Assembly (NCBI GenBank): GCA_964403535.1
Contig: CAYOFN010000002.1
Location: 1 to 53,549 of the forward strand
Source of the DNA: Candidatus Woesearchaeota archaeon
Lineage (GTDB): Archaea > Nanobdellota > Nanobdellia > Pacearchaeales > GW2011-AR1
Reading direction: 5' to 3'
Length of the DNA stretch: 53,549 nucleotides
Shown piece after piece: positions 6,001-53,549 of this stretch. Each line of letters starts with the position of its first letter. The stretch's first letter is position 1. A program made the translations under genes and the position numbers. The notes beneath the pieces were generated by a model. The model did not search any database, had not been told where the DNA came from, and saw only the letters and a program-made list of their open reading frames with translations.

Positions 6001-9000
6001 GCCCGGACCCACAGTTGGTTCAAACCCTAGATGGTCTGCACTCAAAACAGAGTAAGAATCAACATATAAGTCAACTACATTTAAGACTACTCCAGTACCA
6101 TCTCCCTGGAAAGTCAAATTAGGCTGGAAATCCAGTGTTGCACCATTTGTAACATTAATTGTGTGAAATGTATGACCCCTCCCTGTCAATGCCATACTCT
6201 CTTTTATTGTGAGGTTTACATTAGCACCTTCAACTAAAGAAAGGGTTCCATGGTGGCCAGGCAGTGCAGTGCCTGATCCAGCATCTATCCCTCCAGAAAC
6301 ATCTATATCTCCTGCGAAAGTACTTGACAAATATTCAAGAGAGACTCTTCCCCCAGAGCCTCCACCACCCCCATTTGTACCTATGAAATTCCCTCCGTCT
6401 GCAAAAATGCTACCCTCTCCAGTAAGATTAGAAGAAATTATCCAGATACTTCCCCCCGAGCCTCCCCCTCTATCAACATTTTGCCCAGCAGAAGAGAGAT
6501 TTCCATTGACCACAATGTTCCCAGTTGCATTTATAAAAATAATTCCTCCCCCTGCACCTCCACCAATCCCACTATATATCCCGCCTCCACTACCAAAATC
6601 AGTGGGATGGGCAGCAGAACCATACACCTTATCCCAATCATACACTCCTGCTCCAAGACTTCCATAGCATCCTCCCCGACTATAAGTAGATGAGCCTCCA
6701 GGGCCAAGAGTCATCAACCACCCCAACCCATCTGTATAAATCTTCCCGCCAGATTGCACATCAACACTCTCAGCAGTTATGCTTATGTTTCCAGCAGTTA
6801 AATTTCCTCCAGATTGAATTGTTAGATTTCCAGAAAGATTTAAAACAAACCCGCATCCATGATTTGTTCCTAGGCAGTTTGTTTCTGTGTTTTGCAATGC
6901 CCCCCCGTTTTTTATTATCATATTATTCGCAGAAAAAACATATCCATCTGTAATCAGATGTTCTGATGTGATATTGCAGGTTGTTTGCTCATCTCCTTCA
7001 TCACATCCTGTCTCAATTAACAAACTGTTTTCAACAAAAGTTTCTTTATATCCTCCTTTTGTGCAACTTATATTATAAGAATAATTCACATTAGGGATAA
7101 TTGATTTTTCAGATTCCCATAATTTAGTTAAAAAATTCCAGGACATATCATATGATGTTGAGTCATTAAAATTAATAGTGCAAAATGCATTTTGAAAAAC
7201 ATCAACATACCCATTTTTAGAAACAACTGCAAAATCTAAAATCCCATCACCATTAAAATCCAGAGAATCAATCGCAGGCTGTTTTCCTGCAGTTGTTCCT
7301 ATGTCTCCAAGATTAAGAGGATATCTTAGAATAAGACCGCCAGTATAATTGAATATAAAAACCTCATCATTTGCACCTCCTGCAATAATTTCATCTATTC
7401 CATCTGCATCAAAGTCTGCAGTATAAATAGAATATATTGCAATTGCAGTACCTGTTCCATCAATATCATAAGTCCAGTTGTGCGCTGTTAGTTTTTCAGC
7501 ATCTGTTAAATCATATAAATCAAGCATATCTACCTCTCCCCAATTATAAGCACCAGTGGTTCCATAAATCAACTTCTTATCACCATTTGGATATTGATAT
7601 TCCATAATCTCATTTCCCTGAGCATCTGAAAATCCTCCTCTCCATAATCTAGTTCCATTATAAGAGAAGATTTTTATTCCAGTAGCACCCCTACCATAAC
7701 CTGTGATAACTATCTCTTTTCCAGCACTTGTAGAATTATACTCGCCTGCATGAATTGCCATGGGGACATAGTTAGAGCCATTAGACAGTTGAGCCCCACT
7801 ACTTCCGTTATATACAAAATGATAATTCCTTGTAATAATAATCGGGTCATCATAACCATCTCCATCCAAATCAATTGCATAAATCTCGTGCCCGTAAGAG
7901 CCTGTTGCATCTCCTGTATTTGCACTCCATTTTAAACTCCATGAAGTCCCATCACTTGTATTAAAAGCATATACCCATGGAGGAGAAGCTAGTTTAGAAG
8001 CAACAATATCATTCTCAAACCCATTTCCATCTAAATCAACAATATCAATAGAGCCAACATCTCCTCCAAGAGTATAACTCCAAACCTGGCTTCCTGTTTC
8101 ATCAAAAACCCTGACATAATCTCCTGTTTCTGCAGAAACAATGTCATTCTCAAATCCATCCCCATCCAGGTCCCCTACTTCAATCTGATAAATACTCCAG
8201 CTTGCCTCATCCCCTGGCCAGCTTCCAGAAGTTATTTCTGAACCATTGGGATAAAACGCCCTTAACCCTGCATTTGCCTGAGCTACTCCCACAACAATGC
8301 AGTTCTTTTTGCCAGAATTCAAACAATCAAAAGAAGCAAGCGAATAAGCACCATTGCTGGAGTCTATATCCAGACTATCCCATACTGTTTGCCCTAATCC
8401 AGCAAGTTCAAGATTATCTTTTGTAAAATTTGCTTTAAAAGTTATTGTGGGTCCATCAATATCCTGTGATAAGACAATAGAAGCATCATCATATAATGAA
8501 ACTACAACATTATCACTTAAACTTGCATTCTGATATGTTCCTGTTGAATCAAAGCATGAAACATTATAAGAATAATTGCCCACAGGTATACAAGAGTGTC
8601 CTGTTTTATATCCACAATCACCATAAAACTCATACTGGTTTGTTGTATCATTAAATAACATTTCTCCAAGAGGAAGCCAAAATCCAGTCTTATTATTAGA
8701 AATATTACATTTATATGAAGAGCCATTTAAACTGCTCCCTGTAAAATTTGTGAAATTCGCATAAAATCTTGTGAGATTTGTATATACTATTGAGGCATCA
8801 GAATCATCCCAGATTGTTAAATTAGAATTAGATGTATTCATACTAGGGTCAACAATATAATCATACTCAACATCTTCAATTGATTTTAAGTCAAATGTAG
8901 GGTAACTCTCATTATCTCCTAAATTACTAAGATAAATCTTATACCAATTCTCTTGATTTATATTCTCAAATCTTGCAATCTCCTCATTATCTCCTTCTCT

Positions 9001-11751
9001 GTAGACTGCAACTTCAGCAGAAGTATTTTTTGCTCTAGCATAAATTGTAATGTCCCTGGTTTTATCAAGTGGTTGTTTAAAACTAACTCTTAAATACTCC
9101 CCATCTGGAATTAGAGAATAATTTTCATCCTGCGCTTTGACTTGTTCATAAACATCTTCAATAAATGTATAATTTTCATCTAAATGTTCTGCTTTTGAAA
9201 TTTCAATAATTAATTCATAAGTCTGGTTTGATAAATGAGGAACAATCCATTCAATATAGTCAATAAATCCATCTTCATCTAAATCATAAGATGTAAAATC
9301 AACTTCTTGCTTAATCCATTTTCCAGTAGATTCAAGAATCTCAGAACCATTAACTTCAATTTCTTGGTTAATTATCTCTTCACTTATCACACTTCCAGTT
9401 AATAAAGAATTTTCCTGAGTTTTATTCTCACTAATTAATGAATTCTCAGTATTATCTGTTATTTCTTCAGGTTGCTCTTCAATTGTTTTATTAACTTCCC
9501 CTTCTGTTGCTTCAATTGTTTGATTTACTTTTGTTTCATTAATCTCTTCAGTTGTCTGATTGATTATCTCATCACTAGTTATATTAACTACAGGAATTTC
9601 ATTAATTATCTGAGTTTCTTCTGTACTCTCTTGCTTTATTTCCTCTTCACTTAAATTAAGCTCTTGTTTTTCACTTTTAACCTCTTCCTGAACATACCCG
9701 TATAACTTAATGTTATTATTACTCTCACTTCTTATCTTATTAGGAATACGAGTATAAGCTAAAATATCAGTATAGTTTAATTCATCATCAGCAGAAATTA
9801 TTATTCTTTTTCCATTTGAAATATTCTCTTCTACTGCCTGAGGAGCAGGTGTATAATACTCAATTGCAATCTCTTCTTTTTGAGTATTATTAGCAATAGA
9901 AGTTAAATCTAGTATTTTTTTATTATTTGTCTCTGTAATCTCACTTCCTTCTTCTCCTTCACTTATCACTGCCCCAGTTATCTGACTTTTAGTTATCTTT
10001 CCCCACAATCTAGTCAAGATTCCTGGTTTCTTACCACTTTCTCCTATAATCTCTCCTGTAATTAAACTACTCCTCTCTGCACCATCAACTTTATTTTCAT
10101 ATTCCTTAACTGATTTTTCTAGATCTACAACTTCTTCATCTGTCTTAATTGTAATATTCTCAGCTGATTTAGGCAGTTCTACAATTAATCCTCCTTTTTC
10201 TGATTTATTTGTTATTTTAACCCACTTTACAGGCTGTCCTATAATTGCTTTATACTGAATAGACCTAATCTTTACTTCTGAAAGGTTCCCAATACTAATA
10301 TTCACACTCTGGTTTACAATAATTGTTTGATTAACCAAAGTTTGATTAAATATACTCTCATTTGTAGTGGTTAAATTAATTGTCTGATTTGTGGTTATAT
10401 TCTTTACAATCTCTTCTCCACTAACTGAGATTTCCTCACTTACTTCACTTAAAACTTCCTCACCATAAACTAAACTTATTTTTAATTCTCCATTTTTAGC
10501 TAAAACTCCAAATTCATTAAGATTAATTTCAGTAGAACTCTCTTCATCTTGCAGAAAATCTTCACCAAATCCTTCTTCACTCACTGAGTATTCAGTAGAG
10601 ACTACTGCTAAATTTTCCTCAATTTGTAAGGTAACTGCGTTTTCATCAAGCTTTTCATTATTTTCCAGTCTTACAGAACTCTTTTTTATCGTCGCTGTCT
10701 TTCCATTTTCCAAAGAATAAGTAAATTCCTCATCTTTTCTGCAACTTCCATCAACAAACTTTCCACTTTCTCCAGTATTTTCACTCTCTCCTATAACCTC
10801 TCCTGTAATTAAACTACTCTCTCCTGAACTTTCACTGTTCTCTGTTGCACTTTCTTCACTTACCTCAGAACTTTCTGAAGTTGATTCACTGCTTTCTACT
10901 ATCTGGGTTTCTTCACTTGCTTGTTCTTGAGGTTGTTTATTATTCTCTGGTGTTTGAGTTTCTTCATTTACTGGTCCTTGAGCTGGTTCTTCTATTATCT
11001 CTTGAGATTCTACTCCCTCTTCTGGAGTTATCTCCTCTACAATACTTCCATCTACTCCTCCCTCTTCACTTGCAGGATTTTCACTTTCCTGAGATTCTTG
11101 CTCACTTGCATTTTCTTGAGGTTTTTCTTCACTCACATTCTTTTCTTCTTCAACAAGCTCTTCACCTAAATTAGACAACACTAAAGTAAAGAATACTTCA
11201 GGATAAGTTACTTTTTCACCTAAAAATCCAATTCCAGAACCATTCCCACTTAACTTCTTTCCTTCAATATAGTAATCTCCATTAAAATTAGGCTCTAGAA
11301 TTTCATTTAATTCAATTTCTTTTCTAAAACCTTCTTGTTCAATAATCAACTTAGAGCCTAGAGGAAGAAGTTCACCTTGCTTTAAACTTAATTTTAACAC
11401 ACCAGATACATTCTCTCCAGAGAGGTACTGATTTTGAATATCTAAACTAACATTTCCTGTAATCTGCTGAGTATAAATAAAAAAAATAGCACCAATAAAA
11501 AACAAAAAAACAATTCCCACACCTACAATTAACTTTCTACCCTGAAGAATATTAGGAGAACTTTCATTCATAAGAGTTGTTCTACTCTCTCCCCTCTTTC
11601 TTTTCTTGCTCTCTTTTTTACTTAACCACTCTCTATACGCAGATTTATCTCCAATATATCTTTTTCTTACATGAGAACCATCTCTATAGCTTTCATAGTA
11701 GTAAGGTCCGAACTTTTTCCCCTTTTTGTAGACATAGCGAACATGAACCAT
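1..11751 (-). CDS. Giant (>=3917 codons, 3' end runs off the window start) membrane-anchored cell-surface protein. Parts in order: basic Tyr-rich N-terminus, single TM helix, acidic low-complexity linker, FG-GAP/VCBS-like Ca-binding repeats, Gly-rich PMP-like beta-helix repeats, three LamG (Laminin_G_3-like) modules, NosD/PbH1-like beta-helix.
   Basis: Absent from the ORF track because it has no stop inside the window. Hand translation of the minus frame from ATG 11751 (MVHVRYVYKKGKKFGPYYYESYRDGSHVRKRYIG...TTLMNESSPNILQGRKLIVGVGIVFLFFIGAIFFIY) stays open wherever I spot-checked, down to position 1. All other frames over these 11.7 kb carry only ORFs of 152 aa or less. Motifs read directly: DLDGDGFENDIV (~8140-8190), DLDGNGFENDIV (~7990-8040), DLDGDGYDD (~7845-7880), DFDADGIDE (~7385-7425), DFNGDGILD (~7230-7265), GGGAIFINATG (~5850-5885), NVDRGGGSGGSIWI (~6440-6480), LDDILIFNRSLSAAEIQSLY (~4090-4150). 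Confidence 0.85.
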   Translation of the reverse strand, partial: MVHVRYVYKKGKKFGPYYYESYRDGSHVRKRYIGDKSAYREWLSKKESKKRKRGESRTTLMNESSPNILQGRKLIVGVGIVFLFFIGAIFFIYTQQITGNVSLDIQNQYLSGENVSGVLKLSLKQGELLPLGSKLIIEQEGFRKEIELNEILEPNFNGDYYIEGKKLSGNGSGIGFLGEKVTYPEVFFTLVLSNLGEELVEEEKNVSEEKPQENASEQESQESENPASEEGGVDGSIVEEITPEEGVESQEIIEEPAQGPVNEETQTPENNKQPQEQASEETQIVESSESTSESSEVSEESATENSESSGESSLITGEVIGESENTGESGKFVDGSCRKDEEFTYSLENGKTATIKKSSVRLENNEKLDENAVTLQIEENLAVVSTEYSVSEEGFGEDFLQDEESSTEINLNEFGVLAKNGELKISLVYGEEVLSEVSEEISVSGEEIVKNITTNQTINLTTTNESIFNQTLVNQTIIVNQSVNISIGNLSEVKIRSIQYKAIIGQPVKWVKITNKSEKGGLIVELPKSAENITIKTDEEVVDLEKSVKEYENKVDGAERSSLITGEIIGESGKKPGILTRLWGKITKSQITGAVISEGEEGSEITETNNKKILDLTSIANNTQKEEIAIEYYTPAPQAVEENISNGKRIIISADDELNYTDILAYTRIPNKIRSESNNNIKLYGYVQEEVKSEKQELNLSEEEIKQESTEETQIINEIPVVNITSDEIINQTTEEINETKVNQTIEATEGEVNKTIEEQPEEITDNTENSLISENKTQENSLLTGSVISEEIINQEIEVNGSEILESTGKWIKQEVDFTSYDLDEDGFIDYIEWIVPHLSNQTYELIIEISKAEHLDENYTFIEDVYEQVKAQDENYSLIPDGEYLRVSFKQPLDKTRDITIYARAKNTSAEVAVYREGDNEEIARFENINQENWYKIYLSNLGDNESYPTFDLKSIEDVEYDYIVDPSMNTSNSNLTIWDDSDASIVYTNLTRFYANFTNFTGSSLNGSSYKCNISNNKTGFWLPLGEMLFNDTTNQYEFYGDCGYKTGHSCIPVGNYSYNVSCFDSTGTYQNASLSDNVVVSLYDDASIVLSQDIDGPTITFKANFTKDNLELAGLGQTVWDSLDIDSSNGAYSLASFDCLNSGKKNCIVVGVAQANAGLRAFYPNGSEITSGSWPGDEASWSIYQIEVGDLDGDGFENDIVSAETGDYVRVFDETGSQVWSYTLGGDVGSIDIVDLDGNGFENDIVASKLASPPWVYAFNTSDGTSWSLKWSANTGDATGSYGHEIYAIDLDGDGYDDPIIITRNYHFVYNGSSGAQLSNGSNYVPMAIHAGEYNSTSAGKEIVITGYGRGATGIKIFSYNGTRLWRGGFSDAQGNEIMEYQYPNGDKKLIYGTTGAYNWGEVDMLDLYDLTDAEKLTAHNWTYDIDGTGTAIAIYSIYTADFDADGIDEIIAGGANDEVFIFNYTGGLILRYPLNLGDIGTTAGKQPAIDSLDFNGDGILDFAVVSKNGYVDVFQNAFCTINFNDSTSYDMSWNFLTKLWESEKSIIPNVNYSYNISCTKGGYKETFVENSLLIETGCDEGDEQTTCNITSEHLITDGYVFSANNMIIKNGGALQNTETNCLGTNHGCGFVLNLSGNLTIQSGGNLTAGNISITAESVDVQSGGKIYTDGLGWLMTLGPGGSSTYSRGGCYGSLGAGVYDWDKVYGSAAHPTDFGSGGGIYSGIGGGAGGGIIFINATGNIVVNGNLSSAGQNVDRGGGSGGSIWIISSNLTGEGSIFADGGNFIGTNGGGGGSGGRVSLEYLSSTFAGDIDVSGGIDAGSGTALPGHHGTLSLVEGANVNLTIKESMALTGRGHTFHTINVTNGATLDFQPNLTFQGDGTGVVLNVVDLYVDSYSVLSADHLGFEPTVGPGGSSSNAIGASHGGKGGGSSDPAYGSEAWPTSLGSGGENYYSVGVTGGGAIFINATGKVVLLGNVTASSYEDASRSGSAGGSILIVADNLTISSYVSANGGDGDRASAAGGGGGRIALHANTLDLTGAIIENIAGEENWGTTCCTSADGSAGTIYINATTSITSTGNATATGYNGTTARINITAPTLTLSGIYLANSTVNPQGKITLNYTLCASNFTGAVFNPEAIWLNGTCVNLAPSTFLSPVDAETGNYSVNGSTNLTLVNNWNYTESQFINFTSDVYGKRLKVYGLFAEGSVNLSRLVIRATDTKTVVNVSEVTGIATNHTLFVPNTLNEGVYICPDALLINNVNKTCTNIIRFTEAEASAGTWNSGVYAKIEGENYRVENLTGSGIGDDSVAPDINFTLPTPANNSNLSATSIYVNLSTDDANQHYSFVEFDKSLVGWWRMDDLNSSGDVLDRSSSSNNGSALGGATLNESGVYGKSFEFDGKSGSYLKLGSPFNLTNSNFTISLWVREISTDEGAHYFLACNEGNYIRFGRSGNALYSYSSTSYGSISIGQNNLTLWSWEKWNNFVLMFNGTGAYHYLNGNVLATKDTDVDYVSPDPTYCVIGCRYSTSNLLNGSLDDILIFNRSLSAAEIQSLYNASEYKYSHNFTNLELDTHTITGYAVDIVGNLNQTEERSVNVCGVPVTTTPQISPISPETDDNLNCSFIITGGCSLSGNMTWFKNNVTNFTLSLEVENNKSASYILDSGNLTAGDTWICEITPRNPAGYGAKKNSSEINILQGLGVSFTSLTPVSEISTQNTSIEINVSITDSLLNPLNKIVWNWNGSNHTIFENDLVLMFNFENLSSLGESATLALDIAGNDNNATLSSPIVNITGKYGKGLEFDGKETKRVYVPDSDNLDLTNFTISFWFKRKGASCDGSCAFSTCFSDDIDVVTAKGGGGGDGGVLDCNWIIGLASSKLSFCAEHTAGTDYSLAGSTTLNNNQWYHGAVTYDGNTATIYVDGAYESSGSVGGTINTNTVDVGIGVGLENNPIVNNGAWNGTIDEFMIWNKSLNSTEISQLYMMNLRKYDADKWSLYINQSKNSTDGLDLGTYSYQAFVANAGEGRKTEERNITVSGVPGVDYFPNVTLNSPPNNNISTINSSLNFNCSATDDQNLENISLYGNWSGGWHLNQTLERSGISNESMFKVNLTDNKKYIWNCLACDNASQCNFSLSNFTLSVNTSYAPSLPKIAFASLTPVSESSTQNTSIEINVSINDSGSALTGVIWSWNETNFTIMNDSLRIWFNFDNVSALGESYLPNTIVYDLSSYHNNGNLTNISAPAKAHSPDWVPEGKFGGAFKFTTPDYNSNGECFFVPHSDSLNPYAADFAMMMWLNCNYTTDTDLSRKGSTLTSPGNIMYKMEIGGYGTPNLLSLNFISDTDAGSTLEWATPICNNEWHFVVGQRRGDTTELWFDGVRVGNDPDFTGSISNLANLTVGCKDTMDDDYYNGTMDEYRLYINQSFSESEINQMYMMNLNKYDTDKWNLYINQSKNSTDGLDFGIYSYQAFATNENGGNKTEKRNITISLPGLTIKSPSNTTYTNNIIDFNVSGNRDLSFCTFSLDNFVNNYSMTKSNTTFFNFTNSSMKDGSYTANFWCNDTGGSVNNTEEIEFFVDFSTNITSCRNIVTANRTYVLRNNISSTGTCINVYAHNVTIDLNGFNITGDRVGTTDYGIYTNLYNNITIKNGYINSFGEGIYLQNSDYDNITNITSSDNLINGISLGAADKNTFNGLVLKSNSYYGMFVFGQKNNLTNITIWNCTQVFGCLTFNGGGGSNRVTGGSINKSLIPLIFFTDSDNNIVENVRVYETSSDVINVTGTSTNNTLINMSYDLTKEIVGTGSSLTRKWWYKAHVNNSAGSNVSEANITAYNRTGAYNFNLNTDETGYSQLGEIIDYVNTGGTRSYFSLYNIYALNSSYLSKNHSFNASLGNNYKDVFSLIINDTTAPIVKVKYPIGYAGYIG
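1308..3641. repeat. Intragenic tandem module duplication with a period of about 1341-1347 bp (447-449 codons) inside the giant ORF
   Basis: About 180 bp at 1308-1490 aligns without gaps to 2655-2837 at high identity by eye. About 60 bp at 2241-2300 aligns to 3582-3641 (catttatctctatgcttgtattttg...ctcagaaacaggagtta). Both offsets are multiples of 3. Confidence 0.75.
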
Positions 11752-11887
11752 CTTTTTTATTAACTTATCTCTTTTTCTGGAATTTAAACTTCTTTATGAA
11801 AATAGTTATTCTACATAGTTTAAATACTTTTTGTTCTTATTCTACAGATTTATGCTCGATAAAACAAAAAACAACTTCAGAAAAAAA

Positions 11888-12057
11888 TTAAGCACTTTTT
11901 ATTTTTGCTTTTTCAATCCACTTCTCTTTCTGCTGGCATAATGAACAAACATAAATTAATTTGTTTTTATTGCTTTCCAAAACTTTTAATGCAGTCCCTT
12001 TTAGTTTTCCAAATCTTTCTTCAATCTCTTCATTGCATATGCAACATGTTCTTACCA
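11888..12057 (-). CDS. Candidate small zinc-ribbon protein (CxxC...CxxC, about 56 codons) with an apparent 1-nt frame break
   Basis: Minus strand reads ATG at 12057, MVRTCCICNEEIEERFGKL. After an A-run near 11998-12003 the sequence continues in another frame as TALKVLESNKNKLIYVCSLCQQKEKWIEKAKIKSA, with the stop at 11888-11890. The span is 170 nt by my count, which is not a multiple of 3. It is below the 60-aa track threshold either way. Confidence 0.3.
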
Positions 12058-12109
12058 TCCAAAAAACAAAGTCAATAAGTTTTATAAACTTAACTTTACT
12101 AAACTATTA

Positions 12110-13813
12110 ATGATACTTAAAAAACAGGTGGTAGACTTGCTCTCAAAACATGTTGAACTTTCAAAAAAACAAATAAATGAGCTAATTGAAACTCCTCCTT
12201 CAGAGGATTTAGGAGATTATTCTTTTCCTTGTTTTATTCTTTCAAAAAAACACAAAAAATCACCTAAAGATATCTCCCAGGGGTTAGTAGGAAACATAAA
12301 ACCTAAGAAATCAATAGAAAAAATCAAGGCAATTGGCCCTTATATTAACTTTTTTATAAATAAGAAGGTTCTTGCACAAGAGATTCTTCAGATAAATCAA
12401 GATTATGGCAAATCTGATGTTGGAAAAGGCAAGACAATTGCAATTGACTTTTCAGGTCCAAATATAGGAAAACCTATGCATATTGGGCATATACGCTCAA
12501 CAATTTTAGGAGACTCTCTAATGAGACTATTTGATTTTCAAGACTACAGGACAGTTGGAATAAACTATCTTGGAGATGTAGGTTTGCATATAGGAAAATT
12601 AATCACAGCTTATGAACTCTGGTTAGATGAAAACTCCTTAAAAAAAGACCCTGTAAAAGAGCTTTTAAGACTCTATATTAAGTTCTGTGAACAAGAAAAC
12701 ACTCCATATCAAGAGGGAATTGAAGAAGAATTCCAGGAAAATGAATGGACAAACAAAGCAAAAGAAAAGCTAAAATTACTTGAACTTGGAGATAAAAAAA
12801 CCCATAAAATCTGGGAAAGTATTCAAAAACACTCAAAAAAAGGGTTTAATAAAGTTTATAACACATTAAATGTAAATTTTCACGAAACAACTGGGCAGTC
12901 TTTATTCTCAGAAAAAGGCAAACAGGTTATTACTCTTGCAATTGAACAAGGAAAAGCTAAGATAGAAAAAGACAGCGCAGTTTATATTGATCTTCCAGAT
13001 TTGCCAAAAAAATATGTTCTTAGAAGCAATGGAACAGCATCTTATATTACTTATGATCTTGGAGCAGCTATAGAGAGGCATAAAAAATACAATTTTGATA
13101 AGATGATTTATATTACAGATTTTCGCCAGTCACTCCATTTTCAGCAGCTTTTTGCAATTCTCAAGAAATTAAACTTCAATTTCTCCTCAAATCTTCAGCA
13201 TCTTGGGTTTGGAACAGTAAATTTTGGAAAAGAGATTATTGCAACACGAACAGGAAAGATTATTCTTTTAGAAGATGTTCTGAAAAAAACAATAGAAAAA
13301 GCTGAAAAAGAAATAAAAAAAAGAAAAACTAAAGGAAATCCTGAAAAACTCGGAGTTGGGGCTTTAAAATACTCTTTTTTAAAAAACGAGCCAGTAAAAG
13401 ATGTTAACTTTTCATGGGAACAAGCTCTTAATTTTGAAGGAGATACAGGTCCTTATCTTCAGTATGCATATGCACGTGCAGCTTCAATTCTAAGAAAATC
13501 AAAATTCTCTGAAAAATCAGCAAAACCAGACAAACAATTAGAAATCCCAGACTTGCACACAAAAGAAATAAAACTTCTTAAAAAAATATCAAATTTTCCA
13601 GAAATCATAACTCAATCAACAAATTTCTTAAATCCAGGTATTTTAGCTCACTATTCATTTGAATTAGCTCAAACTTTCAGTGAATTTTATCATGATTGTC
13701 CTGTAATTGGTTCTAAAGAGCAGAACTTTAGGCTCGCTCTTGTAAATGCTTTTAAAATAACTTTAAAAAACTCCCTTTACTTACTTGGAATAGAAGTTAT
13801 GGAAGAAATGTAA
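12110..13813 (+). CDS. argS: Arginyl-tRNA synthetase
   Basis: 567 aa. HIGH-type motif PMHIGHIRSTILGD. Class I ArgRS C-terminal anticodon-binding region ending in M. TATA-like TTTTATAAAC about 26 nt upstream of the ATG. Confidence 0.95.
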   Translation: MILKKQVVDLLSKHVELSKKQINELIETPPSEDLGDYSFPCFILSKKHKKSPKDISQGLVGNIKPKKSIEKIKAIGPYINFFINKKVLAQEILQINQDYGKSDVGKGKTIAIDFSGPNIGKPMHIGHIRSTILGDSLMRLFDFQDYRTVGINYLGDVGLHIGKLITAYELWLDENSLKKDPVKELLRLYIKFCEQENTPYQEGIEEEFQENEWTNKAKEKLKLLELGDKKTHKIWESIQKHSKKGFNKVYNTLNVNFHETTGQSLFSEKGKQVITLAIEQGKAKIEKDSAVYIDLPDLPKKYVLRSNGTASYITYDLGAAIERHKKYNFDKMIYITDFRQSLHFQQLFAILKKLNFNFSSNLQHLGFGTVNFGKEIIATRTGKIILLEDVLKKTIEKAEKEIKKRKTKGNPEKLGVGALKYSFLKNEPVKDVNFSWEQALNFEGDTGPYLQYAYARAASILRKSKFSEKSAKPDKQLEIPDLHTKEIKLLKKISNFPEIITQSTNFLNPGILAHYSFELAQTFSEFYHDCPVIGSKEQNFRLALVNAFKITLKNSLYLLGIEVMEEM

Positions 13814-34348: not shown

Positions 34349-35050
34349 ATGGAAAACAAAGAGATTAAAGAAAAAGAGCTGATTCTAGGAATAGATGATG
34401 CAGGCAGAGGCCCCTTAATCGGTCCAATGGCATTAGCTGGCTGTTTGATAACTCCAGAAACAGAAGAAGAATTTAGAAAACTCGGAGTTAAAGACTCAAA
34501 AATGCTCTCACCAGCAAGAAGAGAATTTCTTGCAAAAATCATAAGAAAAAAGTCTTTAGGTTTTTATGTAACTCTCACTCATCCATCTGAAATAGACTCA
34601 AAAATAAATAGGGGTACAAATCTTAACACAATAGAAGCAATAAACTCAGCAGAAATAATCCTTCATCTGACAAAACAAAGAAAAGAAAAGATAAAGATTA
34701 TAATTGACTGCCCTTCACCAAATCGCGAGAATTGGAAGCAAACTGTTCTAAAAAATCTTTCTCTTTCTGAGAATATAACTCTTGCCTGCGAGCATAAAGC
34801 AGATAGAGATTATATTGCAGTTTCAGCAGCATCTATACTTGCAAAATCTGAAAGAGAGTCTGAGGTTTTAAAACTCAAAAAGAAAATTGGAAAAGATTTT
34901 GGCTCTGGTTACACTTCTGATTCTGTAACAATTAATTTTTTAAAAAAATACAGCGAGGAGCATAAAAATGACGGTATTTTTAGAGAAACCTGGGCAACAT
35001 TTAAAAATCATACAAAACAAAAGCAGCAAAAAAGTTTAGGAGAATTTTAA
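34349..35050 (+). CDS. rnhB: Ribonuclease HII
   Basis: 233 aa with the GIDDAGRGPLIGPMALAG active-site motif. TATA-like CTTATAAATC about 25 nt upstream. Confidence 0.9.
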   Translation: MENKEIKEKELILGIDDAGRGPLIGPMALAGCLITPETEEEFRKLGVKDSKMLSPARREFLAKIIRKKSLGFYVTLTHPSEIDSKINRGTNLNTIEAINSAEIILHLTKQRKEKIKIIIDCPSPNRENWKQTVLKNLSLSENITLACEHKADRDYIAVSAASILAKSERESEVLKLKKKIGKDFGSGYTSDSVTINFLKKYSEEHKNDGIFRETWATFKNHTKQKQQKSLGEF

Positions 35051-35691: not shown

Positions 35692-38553
35692 ATGCCTTTT
35701 ATAAAAGAGTTGGTAATGAAAGGGTTCAAGAGCTTTGCAAGAGAGACAAGAATCCCCTTAAAAAGAACAATGAATGTTATCATTGGCCCAAATGGTTCAG
35801 GAAAATCTAATATAACTGATGGAATCTGTTTTGTTCTAGGAAGATTAGGTACAAAGAGTCTAAGAGCATCTAAATTATCTAATCTAATTTTCGCAGGAAC
35901 AAAAAAATATAAACCCTCTCCAGAAGCTTCTGTTGAATTGGTCTTTGATAATTCAGACAAAGGATTTTCTTTACAGGAAAAAGATGTAGGAATAAAGAGA
36001 ATAATCAGAAAAAATGGGCAGAGTGTCTATAAGATAAATGATGAAGTTAAAACAAGACAAGAAGTAATTGAACTTCTTGCACAGGCAGGAATAGACCCAA
36101 AAGGATTTAACATTGTTCTTCAGGGAGAAATAGAAAGATTTGTAAAAATGCCTCCAGAATCAAGAAGGCAGATTATAGAAGAGGTTGCAGGAATATCAGT
36201 TTATGAATTAAGAAAAGAAAAATCCCTAAAAGAACTTGAGAAGACTGATTCAAAACTAAAAGAGGTTAATGCAGTCCTGAGAGAGAGAAGGGCTTATTTG
36301 AATAATCTTGAACAAGAGAGAAAACAAGCTCTTAGATTCAATCAACTGCAGGATACACTAAAAAAATGCAGAGCATCTATACTGAATAAACATCTTTCTG
36401 AAAAAAAATCCCAGATAAATTCAGTTAATGAGGAAATCTCAAAAAAACAAGGGGAACTAGATAAAATCAGAATTAACATAGGAAAAACAGAGTCTGAAAT
36501 ATCTTCATTAAATGAAAAGATTAATGATATTACAAACAGAATTCAGAGAGAATCAGGAATTGAGCAGGAGAGAGTAAACTCTGAATTATCAGATTTAAGA
36601 GCAGAGATGGCAGGATTAACAACAAGAAAAGATAACTATGAATCACAGATATCTGAACTTGAGGAAAGAAATAAAGAGCTAAAAGAAACAACCTCTAATC
36701 TCGAGGAAGAGATAGAAAATCTTAAAAAAACAAAAGGAAAAAACAAAAAACAGGAGCTTGATTTAAAAAAATCCCAATTAGAAGAATTAGATGAACAAAA
36801 AAGAAAATTTTACATTATAAAATCTCAGATTTCTTCTTTAATTCAGATACTTGAAGACAAAAAATCCCAGCTTCAGAAAATAAAAAACACCCTTGAGTTC
36901 ACTCTAAAACAAATAGAGCAGGTAGAACAAGAGCTTAAAACAAAAGAAAGTCTTGAAAAACAAGAGGAAATTCTGCGAAAGATTAGTCACTCTCTCATAG
37001 AAAACAAAGAGAATCTTAAAATCCTTGAGCAGGAGAAAATTGAGAGAGATAAAACCATAGCAGTACTAGAAAAACAAATAGAAAAAGCAGAAAAAATAAA
37101 AAAACAAGTCAAAGAAGTAGACATCTGTCCTCTCTGCCAGACAAAAATAACAAAAGAGCATATAGAAGAGGTAATTAAACAGCAGGAAGAAGAAATTCAA
37201 AAAGCAAACTCAGAAATTTCCACTTCCAAAGAAAGAATTCACGAACTAAAAGCAAACTCAGAAAAATCAGAAAAAGAAATTAAAACAGCAGATTCAGAAG
37301 TAAGTATAAGAGAACAGGACATGCAAAAGCTTCATAATATTGATGAGAAAAAACAACATCTTCAAACACTCAACTCTGAAAAAGAAAGTCTTGAAAAAGA
37401 ATTTAATGATTTGCACCAGAAAAAGAAAACTCTTGAAAATAAAATGATTTCTCTAAAAATAAGTGAAGAAAAATATGACTCTTTGAGATTAGACCTGCAA
37501 GAATTGGAGAGGCAGGAAGAGTCTAGTTTAGGGATGGATGTAACAATGAAACAGAGAGAAGTAGAAAGAATAAAATTAAATCTAAAGCAAAATCAAAGAA
37601 CTCTTGATGATTTAAGAGAAGAGCTTGAATCAGTCTCATCTTCACTTGAAGAAAAAACCTCTCTTATAGAAGAAAAAGAACACATAGAGCTTCAGCTTAA
37701 ATCCAAGTTCAGGAAGATTCTTGAAGATAAAGCTAGATTACAAGACAAAATAAGGCTGTTTGAATCTCACATTCTAAAAAAACAAAACGAAAAAACCCTG
37801 ATTGAACAGGAGATAAATGAAAAGAAAATCACAAGAGCCCAGGTTTCAGCACAAAAAGACTCTTTAGAACAGGAATTTTCAGAATTTTCAGGATTAGAAT
37901 TAATCAGTATGTCCATCACACTACTGCAGGAGAAACTGGAAAAAACTCAGCAAACAATAAACTCTATAGGAACAGTTAATCAAAAAGCTCTTGAAGTTTA
38001 TGATGAAGTAAAACAAGAGTATGATTCAGTAGAGCAAAAAGTACAACAGCTCGGGAAAGAGAAAGAAGAAATTCTAAAGATAATTGAAGATATAGACAAG
38101 AAAAAGAAAAAAGCTTTCTTTTTCACTCTTAAAAACATTAATGATTTATTTGAAAGAAACTTTTCTCAATTAAGTATAAAAGGGCAAGCTCAACTCTCTG
38201 CAGAAAACTCAGAAGATGTTTTTGCAGCAGGTTTAGATATTCTTATTAAAGTAGCAAAAGGAAAGTATTTTGATGTTTCTTCTCTTTCTGGAGGAGAACA
38301 AACCCTTGTTGCCCTGAGTTTAATTTTTGCTATTCAGGAGTTTAAACCTTACTCCTTTTACATTTTTGATGAGATTGATGCAGCCCTAGATAAGCATAAT
38401 AGTGAAAGACTCGCAGCTCTCCTTAAAAGATATTTTAAATCAGGACAATATCTAGTCATCACGCATAATGACGCTCTAATCTCAGAATCAACTGCATTAT
38501 TTGGAGTAAGTATGCAAGAAGGAGTAAGTAAAGTTTTAAGTCTAGAAGTTTAA
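35692..38553 (+). CDS. SMC-family ATPase lacking a hinge; CPLC (zinc-hook-like) motif at the coiled-coil midpoint
   Basis: 953 aa. Walker A GPNGSGKSN. SMC-type QGEIERFVKMPPESRRQIIEEVAGI. Signature LSGGEQTLVAL. Walker B FYIFDEIDAALD. ITHN. The long central region is rich in E/K/Q/L. CPLC sits at residues 479-482 (nt ~37126-37137). Confidence 0.85.
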   Translation: MPFIKELVMKGFKSFARETRIPLKRTMNVIIGPNGSGKSNITDGICFVLGRLGTKSLRASKLSNLIFAGTKKYKPSPEASVELVFDNSDKGFSLQEKDVGIKRIIRKNGQSVYKINDEVKTRQEVIELLAQAGIDPKGFNIVLQGEIERFVKMPPESRRQIIEEVAGISVYELRKEKSLKELEKTDSKLKEVNAVLRERRAYLNNLEQERKQALRFNQLQDTLKKCRASILNKHLSEKKSQINSVNEEISKKQGELDKIRINIGKTESEISSLNEKINDITNRIQRESGIEQERVNSELSDLRAEMAGLTTRKDNYESQISELEERNKELKETTSNLEEEIENLKKTKGKNKKQELDLKKSQLEELDEQKRKFYIIKSQISSLIQILEDKKSQLQKIKNTLEFTLKQIEQVEQELKTKESLEKQEEILRKISHSLIENKENLKILEQEKIERDKTIAVLEKQIEKAEKIKKQVKEVDICPLCQTKITKEHIEEVIKQQEEEIQKANSEISTSKERIHELKANSEKSEKEIKTADSEVSIREQDMQKLHNIDEKKQHLQTLNSEKESLEKEFNDLHQKKKTLENKMISLKISEEKYDSLRLDLQELERQEESSLGMDVTMKQREVERIKLNLKQNQRTLDDLREELESVSSSLEEKTSLIEEKEHIELQLKSKFRKILEDKARLQDKIRLFESHILKKQNEKTLIEQEINEKKITRAQVSAQKDSLEQEFSEFSGLELISMSITLLQEKLEKTQQTINSIGTVNQKALEVYDEVKQEYDSVEQKVQQLGKEKEEILKIIEDIDKKKKKAFFFTLKNINDLFERNFSQLSIKGQAQLSAENSEDVFAAGLDILIKVAKGKYFDVSSLSGGEQTLVALSLIFAIQEFKPYSFYIFDEIDAALDKHNSERLAALLKRYFKSGQYLVITHNDALISESTALFGVSMQEGVSKVLSLEV

Positions 38554-50896: not shown

Positions 50897-53549
50897 TTAT
50901 ACCTTCTCACTCTTTTTCACTTTTTTATTGCTTGTTTTCTTTTCACTTTTTGCAGAAGCAAGACTTCCAGTTACTTTAACTAATAATCCTGGCAAACCAG
51001 TTCCAACAGGAACAGGCTGATTCAGTATGATATTCTCAATAACTGAAGCAAGATGATCTTTATTATCTTTTAAAGTAGCATTAACAAATTGTTTTATTGG
51101 TGTTTCAAAACTCGCTCTTGCAAGTATAGATGATTTCTGTGCGATTATTCCCATTCTTGTAACCCCTCTAATATCTCCACTTGAGGTCATTGCATCAGCA
51201 ACCATCTTTAAATGTCTCTCGTCAATATCAAGTCCTTGTGAGTCTATCACTTTCTTGATTTCCAGGATTATCAGTGTTCTTGCAGCTTCAACTCCAAAAA
51301 CTTCTGCAACTTCATGCAAGTCATTACTCTTTGTCTTGTTTTTGTCAACACCTTTAATCTCAAGAATCTCCTTTAAATTAGAACCAGCAGTGATAATCAC
51401 ATAATTACTCTCTCTTTTTACAACAAGTATTTGTTCAATGCCTTTTATTCCTGAGATAATAGTCTCTTTTATTTTTTCTTTTAATTTGTAAATCTCTTTA
51501 AAGTCTAGTGACTCTGTGTCAAATACAAGTGAATTTGCTTTCTCTCTGTTTTTATACCCTTTATCTTTTAATTTTTTTGATATTGTGCTTACGGTTGTAT
51601 GAACCTCCCTAATAGAGCCTAGATTTATTACAGCCTCTATTTTTTTATCTCCAAAATTAACTTTAATTTCTTCAACAACATCCTTTAATTTTGATTCCTG
51701 TATTTTTTGAGCAATTATTCTTGCTTCTTTTTCATTATTATATTCTTTTTCAAGATAAATTTCCATGCTTGGAGTTGAAGGTTTTTTTCTTGCATCAAAA
51801 ATTTCAATTAATCTTGGAAGTCCAAGTGTAATCTGCATCTCCTGAACTCCTGCAAAATGGAAAACATTTAGTGCCATTTGAGTACTTGGTTCACCAAAAC
51901 TCTGTGCAGTTAACATTCCAATTGCTTCTCCAGGACAGATTTGTTTTTCTTTATGCAAATTAATAACATCAATTCCATCATCTCCATATGCAAACTGGAC
52001 TATTCTTCCAGAAGCATCTCTTACTGTATGGTCATACTCTACTCTTAAGTCCTGCAGAGCATTTGCAAGCCTTCTATAAAGGTAACCAGATTTAGGAGTT
52101 CTTAAAGCAGTATCCATCAGTGCATCTCTTCCAGTTATTGCACCAAAGAAAAATTCAAAAGGTTCAAGCCCTTTGATAAATGAAGAGTAAATAAATCCTC
52201 TTGACTTTGGACTTAAATCTCCTTCTTTAAAAAAAGAAAGAGTTCTATTTTTATACCCCATACTGATTCTTTTTGCCCATAATGCCTGCTGTCCAACACA
52301 ACAAGCCATTTGAGTGATATTCAGCACATTTCCTCCAGCTCCAGAAGAAATCATAATACTGACTGGATTGTCTTTTGGAAATTCCTCTTTTACAATCTCC
52401 CCAACTTTTGTTCTTACTTCATTTAAAATTTGAAGAATTTTGATTTCTCTTGACTCTTCTTTTGTTTTTCCAGGTATAGGCTCTATTGAATTATTGTAAT
52501 ACGCCTCAATAACCTTGTTAGTTTTTTCTTCAGAATTCTTAATTATTTCCTCAGTTTTCTTTTTTACTCCCTCTTTAACATTTAAATCCTCAATAGAAAT
52601 AGTAAACCCTCTCTTTGAAAGATAATTCATTCCAAGAGCAAAAGCATTTCTTATTACCTCAATTGTTTTGTTTCTCCCACACATCTTATCAATATGTTTT
52701 ATTACTGCTCCATTCTCAACTCCAAAAACATTTTCATCTACATCTCCTTCTATAATCTTGCCTTTTTTAACAACAAAATTCTTGTCTGTTCTTGTTTTTC
52801 CAGTATAATCAATTTCTGGGAAAACCTGGGAGATAATCTCACTTCCTAAAATTGTTTTTTTATTAATCTCCCCCCCTATTCCAGATTGAAAGAGAAGTTG
52901 TGAAGCTTCACCCTTTTCAAATTCGCTGAGATTAAGAAGATAATCTCCAGTTATCGCATCAGCAATACATCCAATCAAATTAGAATTATTTTTAGGAGAC
53001 ATTAAATTCTGCTTTACATCCAAAAGAACTCTTGCCTCTGCTCTAGCTTCCTCTCCCTGAGGAGAGTGAACATTCATTTCATCTCCATCAAAATCTGCAT
53101 TATATGGAAATGCAGTAGCAGGATGAAGTCTAAATGTTTTATGTGGAAGAACTCTTACAAAATGCGCCATTAAACTTGCCTTATGCAAAGATGGATGTCT
53201 GTTAAACAATACAACATCTCCGTCTTTTAAATGCCTCTCAACAATATACCCGGGATGAATCTCATCAGTTATCTCTTGTTTTAATTCAGGAGTTATTCTT
53301 TTTCTTTTACCATCTGGCCTGATTATATAATTTGCTCCAGGATAACTATCTGAGTTTATTAATTTTCTCAATTTCTCAATGTTCTTTGTAGTTACAGACT
53401 CGTTTACAGTAAGAACCTCTGCAATTTCTTGAGGAACACCAATCTCATTTATATCCAAGTAAGGATCTGGAGAGATTACTGTTCTGCTGGAAAAGTTGAC
53501 TCTTTTTCCTGCAAGATTATGTCTTATTCTTCCTTCTTTTCCTTTTATT
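50897..53549 (-). CDS. rpoA: DNA-directed RNA polymerase largest subunit, unsplit A'-A'' fusion (N-terminus beyond the window end)
   Basis: The frame is open from 53549 (IKGKEGRIRHNLAGKRVNFSSRTVISPDPYLDINEIGVP). Catalytic NADFDGDEMN. Bridge-helix region GRDALMDTALRTPKSGYLYRRL. It continues without a stop through YGDDGIDVINLHKEKQICPGEAIGMLTAQSFGEPSTQMALNVFHFAGV...GLPRLIEIFDARKKPSTP, which are A''-type trigger-loop motifs, to the stop at 50897. Confidence 0.9.
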   Translation of the reverse strand, partial: IKGKEGRIRHNLAGKRVNFSSRTVISPDPYLDINEIGVPQEIAEVLTVNESVTTKNIEKLRKLINSDSYPGANYIIRPDGKRKRITPELKQEITDEIHPGYIVERHLKDGDVVLFNRHPSLHKASLMAHFVRVLPHKTFRLHPATAFPYNADFDGDEMNVHSPQGEEARAEARVLLDVKQNLMSPKNNSNLIGCIADAITGDYLLNLSEFEKGEASQLLFQSGIGGEINKKTILGSEIISQVFPEIDYTGKTRTDKNFVVKKGKIIEGDVDENVFGVENGAVIKHIDKMCGRNKTIEVIRNAFALGMNYLSKRGFTISIEDLNVKEGVKKKTEEIIKNSEEKTNKVIEAYYNNSIEPIPGKTKEESREIKILQILNEVRTKVGEIVKEEFPKDNPVSIMISSGAGGNVLNITQMACCVGQQALWAKRISMGYKNRTLSFFKEGDLSPKSRGFIYSSFIKGLEPFEFFFGAITGRDALMDTALRTPKSGYLYRRLANALQDLRVEYDHTVRDASGRIVQFAYGDDGIDVINLHKEKQICPGEAIGMLTAQSFGEPSTQMALNVFHFAGVQEMQITLGLPRLIEIFDARKKPSTPSMEIYLEKEYNNEKEARIIAQKIQESKLKDVVEEIKVNFGDKKIEAVINLGSIREVHTTVSTISKKLKDKGYKNREKANSLVFDTESLDFKEIYKLKEKIKETIISGIKGIEQILVVKRESNYVIITAGSNLKEILEIKGVDKNKTKSNDLHEVAEVFGVEAARTLIILEIKKVIDSQGLDIDERHLKMVADAMTSSGDIRGVTRMGIIAQKSSILARASFETPIKQFVNATLKDNKDHLASVIENIILNQPVPVGTGLPGLLVKVTGSLASAKSEKKTSNKKVKKSEKV

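Follow-up and report, generated by a model that had tools for sequence, protein, structure and literature searches.

An SMC-type ATPase at the locus

The subject of this analysis is a gene on a 53,549-nucleotide stretch of DNA from a Candidatus Woesearchaeota archaeon (contig CAYOFN010000002.1 of assembly GCA_964403535.1; the whole stretch is called the window hereafter). It encodes a protein with the ATPase head of an SMC protein and two long coiled-coil arms, whose apex, at the site where SMC proteins carry their hinge domain, resembles the zinc hook of Rad50; we refer to it as the hook SMC. The parts of the gene, and the rnhB gene upstream of it, are laid out as follows:

35692..38553, + strand: complete hook-SMC gene with ATG start, 953 amino acids plus stop (open reading frame list; Pfam SMC_N, E=1.6e-50; TIGR02169, 548 bits)
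35692..36192, + strand: N-terminal ATPase head half, residues 1-167, with Walker A, R58 and Q-loop Q144 (match to the Pyrococcus Smc head 5xei)
35785-35811, + strand: Walker A GPNGSGKSN, residues 32-40 (motif position)
36193..37116, + strand: N-terminal coiled-coil arm, residues 168-475 (AlphaFold, DSSP), with discontinuities at residues ~205-240 (joint) and 345-354
37117..37161, + strand: putative zinc-hook apex VDICPLCQTKITKEH, residues 476-490 (translation, conservation, Pfam, PDB profile, Foldseek)
37126-37137, + strand: CPLC, residues 479-482 (translation)
37153..38061, + strand: C-terminal coiled-coil arm, residues 488-790 (AlphaFold, DSSP), with discontinuities at residues 608-614 and 730-741
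38062..38550, + strand: C-terminal ATPase head half, residues 791-953, with signature, Walker B, D-loop and H-loop H925 (Foldseek match 4i99_A)
38284-38298, + strand: signature LSGGE, residues 865-869 (motif position)
38356-38379, + strand: Walker B FYIFDEID, residues 889-896 (motif position)
34349..35050, + strand: rnhB (RNase HII), upstream neighbour of smc (RNase_HII Pfam match on the identical contig)

A sequence-only reading of this DNA had described a 953-residue protein with the head motifs FKSF, GPNGSGKSN, QGEIERF, RRQIIEEVAGI, LSGGEQTLVAL and FYIFDEIDAALD, flanked by a bPH membrane protein and two genes of no recognised family. The motifs stand in the translation at residues 12, 32, 144, 158, 865 and 889, respectively, the ATG-initiated frame has exactly the given length, and the neighbours are as it named them, with the bPH membrane protein upstream and two downstream open reading frames without a Pfam match. 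The protein contains four cysteines in total (46, 226, 479 and 482), the last two of which form its sole CxxC, the CPLC at residues 479-482, next to the sequence midpoint at 476.5, where the same reading had placed it.

Family models assign the head to SMC proteins. Among the NCBIfam models, SMC_prok_A (TIGR02169) scored 548 bits (547.9) and SMC_prok_B (TIGR02168) 508 bits, as against 120 bits (120.5; e-value 7.8e-35) for NF045487, the equivalog of the ASRPs, archaeal SMC-superfamily proteins that combine a coiled coil with a zinc-hook motif (PMC9389158), 93 bits for the best Rad50 model and 42 bits for RecN. The ASRP score lies under the 300-bit cut-off of its model, and the Rad50 equivalogs, at 55-93 bits, fall far under theirs of 700-1087. 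A search of the PDB sequences returned Pyrococcus Smc heads as the best matches (5xei, 2.9e-106; 5xns, 2.4e-91; 4i99, 3.8e-83), with Rad50 heads reaching only 2.7e-14. An AlphaFold2 model of the full protein, built on 65 homologues (mean pLDDT 79), gave a corresponding result in Foldseek, where SMC proteins ranked first (4i99_A, TM 0.91) and Rad50 appeared from rank 19; as this search was dominated by the head and uninformative on the apex, a separate model of the apex was built. Together with the phylogenetic trees described below, all of these comparisons show the head to be of the SMC type and not of the Rad50 type, in agreement with what had been judged from the motifs.

A Rad50/SbcC repair ATPase that has parted from mre11, and whose head is merely SMC-like, would account for several features of the protein: the central CxxC hook with its match to the Rad50_zn_hook family (PF04423), the absence of a hinge and the Rad50-like length of ~950 residues. 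Rad50 models even align to it end to end (PRK03918, for example, over residues 4-948). Against this stand the model scores and PDB e-values given above, together with the tree, the gene order and the missing Mre11 reported below, and we regard this explanation as scarcely credible.

In an alignment of 65 sequences, the catalytic residues of the head are invariant, both in its N-terminal half (G32, K38, S39, R58 and Q144) and in its C-terminal half (S866, G867, G868, E869, D893, E894, D896 and H925). As the motif set is thus invariant across the family, the ATPase is very likely active. A role as a defence-related SMC-like ATPase was considered and rejected: the PADLOC matches (mad3 at 175 bits, confined to the C-terminal head; LmuB at 68 and JetC at 52 bits) reflect generic head similarity, and the neighbours of hook-SMC genes, rnhB, dnaG, tuf and an endonuclease IV-like gene, do not form the context of a defence island.

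A hook-like apex in place of the hinge

The Pfam hinge domain (SMC_hinge, PF06470) has no match in the hook SMC at E<=1, and a hinge profile of our own, built with jackhmmer from the nearest hinge-bearing relatives, matched 104 canonical SMCs in the collected sequence set and no sequence of the hook type. Both results bear out the earlier claim that the centre holds no hinge. As a positive control, PF06470 recognises the nearest hinge-bearing relative (P0146; 1157 residues, 37% identical to the hook SMC) at residues 517-634 with E=3e-33. The alignment of these two proteins falls into two segments, pairing residues 4-469 of P0146 with 4-468 of the hook SMC and residues 680-1157 with 492-953, so that a block of 210 residues (470-679) in P0146 faces ~23 residues with the hook. 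The hinge together with ~47 flanking coil residues per strand is thus exactly exchanged for a hook apex of ~23 residues. What surrounds this apex is continuous coiled coil without a glycine-rich hinge, as had also been proposed: residues 176-825 contain one proline, the Pro480 of the hook, and very few glycines, and are helical, short breaks aside, in the AlphaFold model.

The apex itself is the most conserved part of the central region. All of the 120 closest homologues (53-58% identity) share C479, P480 and C482, and these three are equally invariant in the 65-sequence alignment, which reaches down to 37% identity, and in every full-length locus from GTDB species representatives; the conservation of the CxxC among orthologues, on which its interpretation as a hook depends, thus extends throughout the sampled range. 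D477, T484, K485, T487 and H490 are near-invariant in the 120 closest homologues as well; of these five, D477 and H490 alone exceed 90% in the wider alignment. Conservation peaks at residues 466-495, within coiled coil that is ~40-55% conserved. Judged from these alignments, the hook motif is conserved far beyond chance.

Several comparisons relate this apex to Rad50. In the full protein, Rad50_zn_hook matches residues 460-507 at 21.6 bits, which is sub-threshold (cut-off 24.3); on an 86-residue apex fragment the score rises to 26.8 bits, over the cut-off, and 29/32 apex fragments from across the family match, the best at 4.6e-8. A profile of these 86 residues, run against all PDB sequences, retrieved the Pyrococcus furiosus Rad50 hook first (6zff, 6.2e-7; 1l8d, 8.5e-7), followed by the human RAD50 hook 5gox at E=0.06. 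It aligns CPLCKTKITKEH of the hook SMC with CPVCGRELTDEH of the P. furiosus hook and, as the aligned motif, DiCPlCktkitkeh with GKCPVCGRELTDEH. The apex-only AlphaFold model (pLDDT 96) found the same structures in a Foldseek search of 350,542 PDB chains, with 1l8d_B and 1l8d_A as best matches (TM 0.82 and 0.81; root-mean-square deviation 2.4-2.5 Å) and 5gox next; the E-values are modest (0.014), which is to be expected with a helical hairpin of this small size. By these profile and predicted-fold comparisons, apex and Rad50 zinc hook (PF04423; PDB 1L8D/6ZFF) are homologous, the likeness extending beyond a bare CxxC.

The coiled-coil arms are built around this point. In the model, DSSP assigns helices to residues 168-344, 355-414 and 421-475, a loop to 476-487, and then helix to 488-827 apart from short breaks. 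Measured from the hook, one pair of breaks, 345-354 and 608-614, is found at 131 and 130 residues, and a second pair, made up of a low-confidence stretch at ~205-240 and a break at 730-741, at ~258 and ~255 residues. Helix breaks mirrored in this manner are what an antiparallel hairpin folded exactly at CPLC would predict. The distance from Walker A to the first hook cysteine is 445-449 residues in 171/184 homologues, and that from the second cysteine to the signature is 382-384 residues, again in 171/184. The arm lengths of hook SMCs are tightly fixed; with ~308 residues per strand they come to an estimated ~46 nm at 1.5 Å per residue, and those of bacterial Smc are given as ~47 nm (PMC5344682).

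Family spread, gene neighbourhood and kleisin

The best 120 database matches of the hook SMC are nearly all 953-954 residues long, stem from metagenome-assembled genomes (MAGs) of Pacearchaeota and Nanoarchaeota, and are annotated as 'chromosome segregation SMC family protein'; none of the 120 has a hinge domain. In a scan of GTDB species genomes, of which the best 80 loci were considered, the hook form occurs in ~60 distinct assemblies labelled Pacearchaeota, Woesearchaeota or Nanoarchaeota. No hinge-bearing SMC from these ~60 assemblies was among the 80 loci, where hinge-bearing SMCs of other assemblies did rank. The hook SMC is not peculiar to its source genome and marks large DPANN clades. 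One assembly, CAZOAN01, has two contigs (L014 and L015) that each carry a hook SMC with the same apex motif; the contig may be present in duplicate, the bin may mix two strains, or the gene may truly be duplicated.

To place the head phylogenetically, its two halves were extracted with hidden Markov models from 225 sequences (334 columns) and analysed by neighbour joining with 100 bootstraps, in a tree without outgroup sequences from Rad50 or ASRPs. Monophyly of the hook clade is recovered in 98/100 bootstraps, and the clade is nested among hinge-bearing SMCs; its sister group consists of 28 hinge-bearing SMCs, including proteins named as Woesearchaeota SMC, with a weak support of 49/100. Gene order tells a related story. 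Across 65 hook-SMC loci, rnhB is a neighbour in 49/65, an Ig-like surface protein in 41, and dnaG and an endonuclease IV-like gene in 31 each, so that the context, with rnhB, dnaG and tuf, is one of housekeeping genes. A hinge-bearing SMC (locus L068) has rnhB directly upstream, in the same position as in the hook loci. Taken together, the head tree and the shared rnhB-smc order therefore point to a hook gene that is the resident smc with its hinge swapped in situ, and not a new paralogue. The nesting of the head clade among hinge-bearing SMCs, and the gene order shared with a hinge-bearing smc, also count against the Rad50 explanation raised above.

The alternative is that the hook SMC is a specialised paralogue, akin to the ASRPs ClsN and Sph or to the defence SMCs LmuB and JetC, which works beside a canonical Smc from another locus of the genome. 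The ASRPs are, after all, archaeal, SMC-related and zinc-hooked (PMC9389158), their model matches at 7.8e-35, the PADLOC models mad3, LmuB and JetC match too, and our view of the genome is that of a 53.5-kb window. However, the ASRP score of 120 bits compares poorly both with the 300-bit cut-off and with the 548 bits of the SMC model, and the PADLOC matches, at 175 bits or less, are generic. The rnhB-smc synteny shared with a hinge-bearing smc and the housekeeping context speak for the resident gene, and in the tree the hook clade takes the place of hinge-bearing sisters without a pattern of duplication. The lack of hinge-bearing SMCs from hook-SMC assemblies among the best GTDB loci is a weak hint in the same direction, and lends weak, indirect support to the suggestion of the sequence-only reading that this may be the only SMC-class protein of a reduced genome. 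On balance, we consider a specialised paralogue quite unlikely.

In two relatives, the kleisin ScpA is encoded alongside the hook SMC. The sequence-only reading had noted that neither mre11 nor scpA or scpB lies adjacent. This holds for the window: none of the 20 window open reading frames that were scanned against Pfam contains a ScpA, ScpB, Mre11 or Rad50 domain, the other frames having been judged by sequence only, and none of these four proteins occurs among the called genes around identical copies of the gene. Motif scans were likewise negative for Mre11 in the whole window and for Rad50 and Mre11 in 1.39 Mb of related loci, which are targeted neighbourhoods and tell little of whole genomes; the absence of a nearby Mre11 is a further point against a displaced Rad50. 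What the earlier observation did not convey is that scpA is present elsewhere in the genomes of relatives. In locus L039, a 279-residue open reading frame 5 kb downstream of the hook SMC, located by the archaeal motif 'DPWDIDI' and confirmed with Pfam, matches SMC_ScpA (PF02616) over its full length at 3.6e-9. On a second contig, JAIFVX010000001.1 (575,302 bp), a ScpA (P0375) at 153-166 kb accompanies the hook SMC of locus L050. The kleisin ScpA is thus encoded in genomes carrying a hook SMC. The L039 protein has at least 120 listed homologues and 466 at E<=0.001, the few with a named source deriving from Pacearchaeota or Nanoarchaeia MAGs. A regular expression for the bacterial-type ScpA motif, FxGPLDLL, found no match in any of the loci, and no ScpA was found in the locus of the hinge-bearing P0146. 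Archaeal Smc complexes are generally binary Smc-ScpA assemblies (PMC7055376), and the failure to find ScpB is therefore uninformative.

Between the hook SMC and ScpA, locus L039, a Pacearchaeota-like contig, also contains, at 8223-10273 on the minus strand, a DisA-type diadenylate cyclase (DAC plus DisA-linker) and a DHH/DHHA1 phosphoesterase, which are a pair for the synthesis and degradation of cyclic-di-AMP beside chromosome-maintenance genes.

A probable zinc-hook Smc and other hingeless designs

The combination of an SMC head with a Rad50-style hook replacing the hinge, as the sequence-only reading had proposed it, finds support in the head scores, the absent hinge, the invariant CPxC and the homology to PF04423 and to the hooks in the PDB. 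The hook SMC is probably the chromosomal Smc of this Pacearchaeota-like DPANN archaeon; a Rad50-type hook takes the place of the hinge as the putative site of dimerisation, and the protein would work with ScpA. The chain would fold back at CPLC (residues 479-482) into an antiparallel arm of ~308 residues, and the fold-back would join the N- and C-terminal halves into an SMC-type ABC-ATPase head. In the manner of Rad50, two chains would be joined at the apex by one Zn2+, to which each chain contributes two of the four coordinating cysteines. ATP would drive engagement and disengagement of the heads, ScpA would connect one Smc at its neck with the other at its cap to close a binary Smc-ScpA ring, and this ring would organise and segregate the chromosome, with DNA loop extrusion as a further putative activity.

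Several points weigh against this proposal. The score of 547.9 bits misses the TIGR02169 equivalog cut-off of 729.4 bits; the cause is that the match is split into two segments and leaves out the model's hinge region, a defining domain being the one that is missing. Secondly, scpA was not found within the 53.5-kb window, and the same genome may encode a second, hinge-bearing SMC or a Rad50. Thirdly, zinc binding and dimerisation through the hook are inferred only, from sequence and from monomer models. Finally, members with neither a hinge nor an apex cysteine are nested in both of the hook clades that we distinguish below, and the hook is therefore not indispensable for every member of the family. 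In the Pacearchaeota clade these are P0137, P0140, P0142, P0145 and L058, with ~780-804 residues, and in the Diapherotrites clade P0425 and 16 others, with ~920-940 residues; the 804-residue type of P0137 recurs at identical length in independent assemblies.

Such derivatives bring up the question of whether the protein, though a chromosomal Smc, dimerises through arm-arm and head-head contacts only, with the CPxC capping the hairpin or sensing metal or redox state. Apart from the hookless, hingeless members inside both clades and their recurrence in independent assemblies, this possibility draws on the cysteine-free hingeless SMCs of Spirochaetes described below and the CXXC-lacking ones of marine Actinobacteria (PMC12153180); these show that SMCs can endure with no recognisable dimeriser at the apex. 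Yet the two cysteines of one chain are insufficient alone for a tetrahedral zinc site, the pattern C-P-x-C-x-x-x-I/L-T-x-E-H matches the dimerising Rad50 hook in sequence as well as in predicted fold, and the invariance of Cys-Pro-Cys in at least 184 sequences argues for a precise function. We thus hold a cap or sensor to be improbable and favour dimerisation through the hook.

A second clade of hook-bearing SMCs came to light in Iainarchaeum (locus L076). This SMC-type protein, with 464 bits for TIGR02169 vs 72 for Rad50, carries an intein in Walker A and a CPVC at the apex, and it lacks a hinge. Its best 120 relatives belong to Diapherotrites, Micrarchaeota and AR10 and mostly have 985-1012 residues; a central CPxC is present in 101/120 of them and SMC_hinge in none. 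The Diapherotrites clade includes a hook subclass of ~806 residues (P0438, P0454, P0465-P0471, P0475, P0481 and P0487), in which both arms are shorter by ~93 (91-95) residues, the hook shifting from residue 488 to 393 and the signature from 895 to 709. This recalls the period of ~99 residues in the arm lengths of Bacillus subtilis Smc and the 'steps of ~100 AA' described in Smc (PMC5344682). The two hook clades group together without intervening hinge-bearing sequences in 0/100 bootstraps, which suggests two independent hinge-to-hook replacements, a neighbour-joining tree on 334 columns not being decisive.

More tentatively, and with somewhat more doubt than confidence, we propose that the zinc-hook Smc may be the sole chromosomal SMC of whole DPANN orders, that hinge was exchanged for hook in situ at least twice independently (in Pacearchaeota/Woesearchaeota and in Diapherotrites/Micrarchaeota), and that the hook was later lost in some sublineages. 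Roles of the SMC hinge beyond dimerisation are debated and include DNA binding, a DNA entry gate and the selective bypass of obstacles. Should the proposal be true, such hinge-specific activities would be dispensable for the core function of Smc-ScpA, and arm length, fixed within +/-2 residues, would be the feature that remains constrained.

With prokaryotic Smc (TIGR02169/TIGR02168; 5XEI, 5XNS, 4I99), the hook SMC shares the ABC-ATPase head with its full set of motifs, the long antiparallel coil with a joint-like discontinuity, a near-canonical arm length, the rnhB-smc slot of a hinge-bearing relative and the presence of ScpA in the lineage; it differs in lacking the PF06470 hinge, in having an apex of ~23 residues with the hook instead, and in scoring under the equivalog cut-off. 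With the Rad50 hook (PF04423; 1L8D, 6ZFF; human 5GOX), it has in common the CPxC at the apex of an antiparallel coil, the flanking motif and the best structural match, whereas its head is of the SMC type, Mre11 is not adjacent and ScpA is the likely partner. The ASRPs (ClsN/coalescin, Sph1/Sph2; NF045487) are likewise archaeal members of the SMC superfamily with coiled coil and zinc hook, yet of a different head lineage (120 bits vs the cut-off of 300); in the tree, the hook SMC has bona fide SMCs around it. Marine Actinobacteria possess 'hinge-less' SMC variants (Sussfeld et al. 2025, PMC12153180) that resemble the hook SMC in the SMC-type head, the coiled coil and the loss of the hinge; these proteins, however, are bacterial and explicitly without CXXC, and the hook SMC is archaeal with a conserved, putative zinc hook. 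The hook SMC is thus best called a member of the SMC lineage without its defining hinge, which has the hook in common with Rad50 and the ASRPs and the head of neither.

The closest precedent is a laboratory construct. In B. subtilis Smc(Zh), the P. furiosus Rad50 hook was substituted for the hinge, and the chimera 'supported normal growth', with arm-length constraints persisting (Burmann et al. 2017, PMC5344682); Tatebe et al. 2020 likewise found hook and hinge to be interchangeable (PMC6969161). The hook SMC has the same composition as Smc(Zh), with Smc head and arms and a Rad50-type zinc hook for the hinge, but is a natural, conserved family, known here from sequence in at least ~60 GTDB species. 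The key evidence for the irrelevance of the dimeriser fold is this one engineered chimera, and a natural, vertically inherited hook Smc would amount to an evolutionary replicate of the experiment. Hook SMCs would also be ready-made proteins with which to test loop extrusion, loading and segregation without a hinge, would offer a second architecture in which to check the rules of arm length, and may show how domains swap between the Rad50 (repair) and SMC (condensin) branches. We found no description of a natural zinc-hook SMC in the full-text literature, a scope that covers few subscription journals; the closest account is that of the hinge-less, CXXC-lacking clade of marine Actinobacteria (PMC12153180). 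Surveys of archaeal SMCs treat those of DPANN as canonical (PMC8665677), and Burmann et al. took hinge alignments as the seed of their arm-length survey (PMC5344682), which may be why it missed hook SMCs. More generally, such proteins are overlooked or poorly annotated where surveys start from hinge alignments or where equivalog cut-offs presuppose a hinge.

Hingeless SMCs of other kinds were seen along the way. In Spirochaetes (L069-L080), SMCs of 920-980 residues that score over the TIGR02168 equivalog cut-off (869 bits) have no SMC_hinge match and carry at the apex a conserved, cysteine-free motif, ...P....L(S/A)PEG(I/V)..(K/R)KR; these bacterial proteins look like a further natural way of building an SMC without a hinge. 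In Altiarchaeota (L066, 10001-13030), a protein of the SMC type with 1010 residues, no Pfam hinge match and no cysteine has a small non-helical insert at residues ~470-540, the expected site of the hinge, which is possibly a degenerate hinge. Inteins with a LAGLIDADG homing endonuclease interrupt Walker A, right after GK, in many DPANN SMC genes, those of the hook type included (L076 at 8198-12925; P0095, P0097, P0114, P0122, P0127, P0389, P0411 and others).

In the remainder of the window, a scan against Rfam gave two tRNAs as sole matches and no rRNA. From position 1 to 11793, the minus strand is occupied by one open reading frame of >3931 codons that extends past the left window end, which explains why hardly any open reading frames are listed in the first 12 kb; its product is probably one of the giant surface proteins typical of DPANN genomes. 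At the other end, an open reading frame for the large subunit of RNA polymerase (50897-53458, minus strand) unites Rpb1 domains 2, 3, 4 and 5 in one frame according to Pfam. In most archaea, Rpb1 domain 5 resides on the separate A'' subunit; the frame, listed with a TTG start near the window end, may thus be a fused A'/A'' gene.

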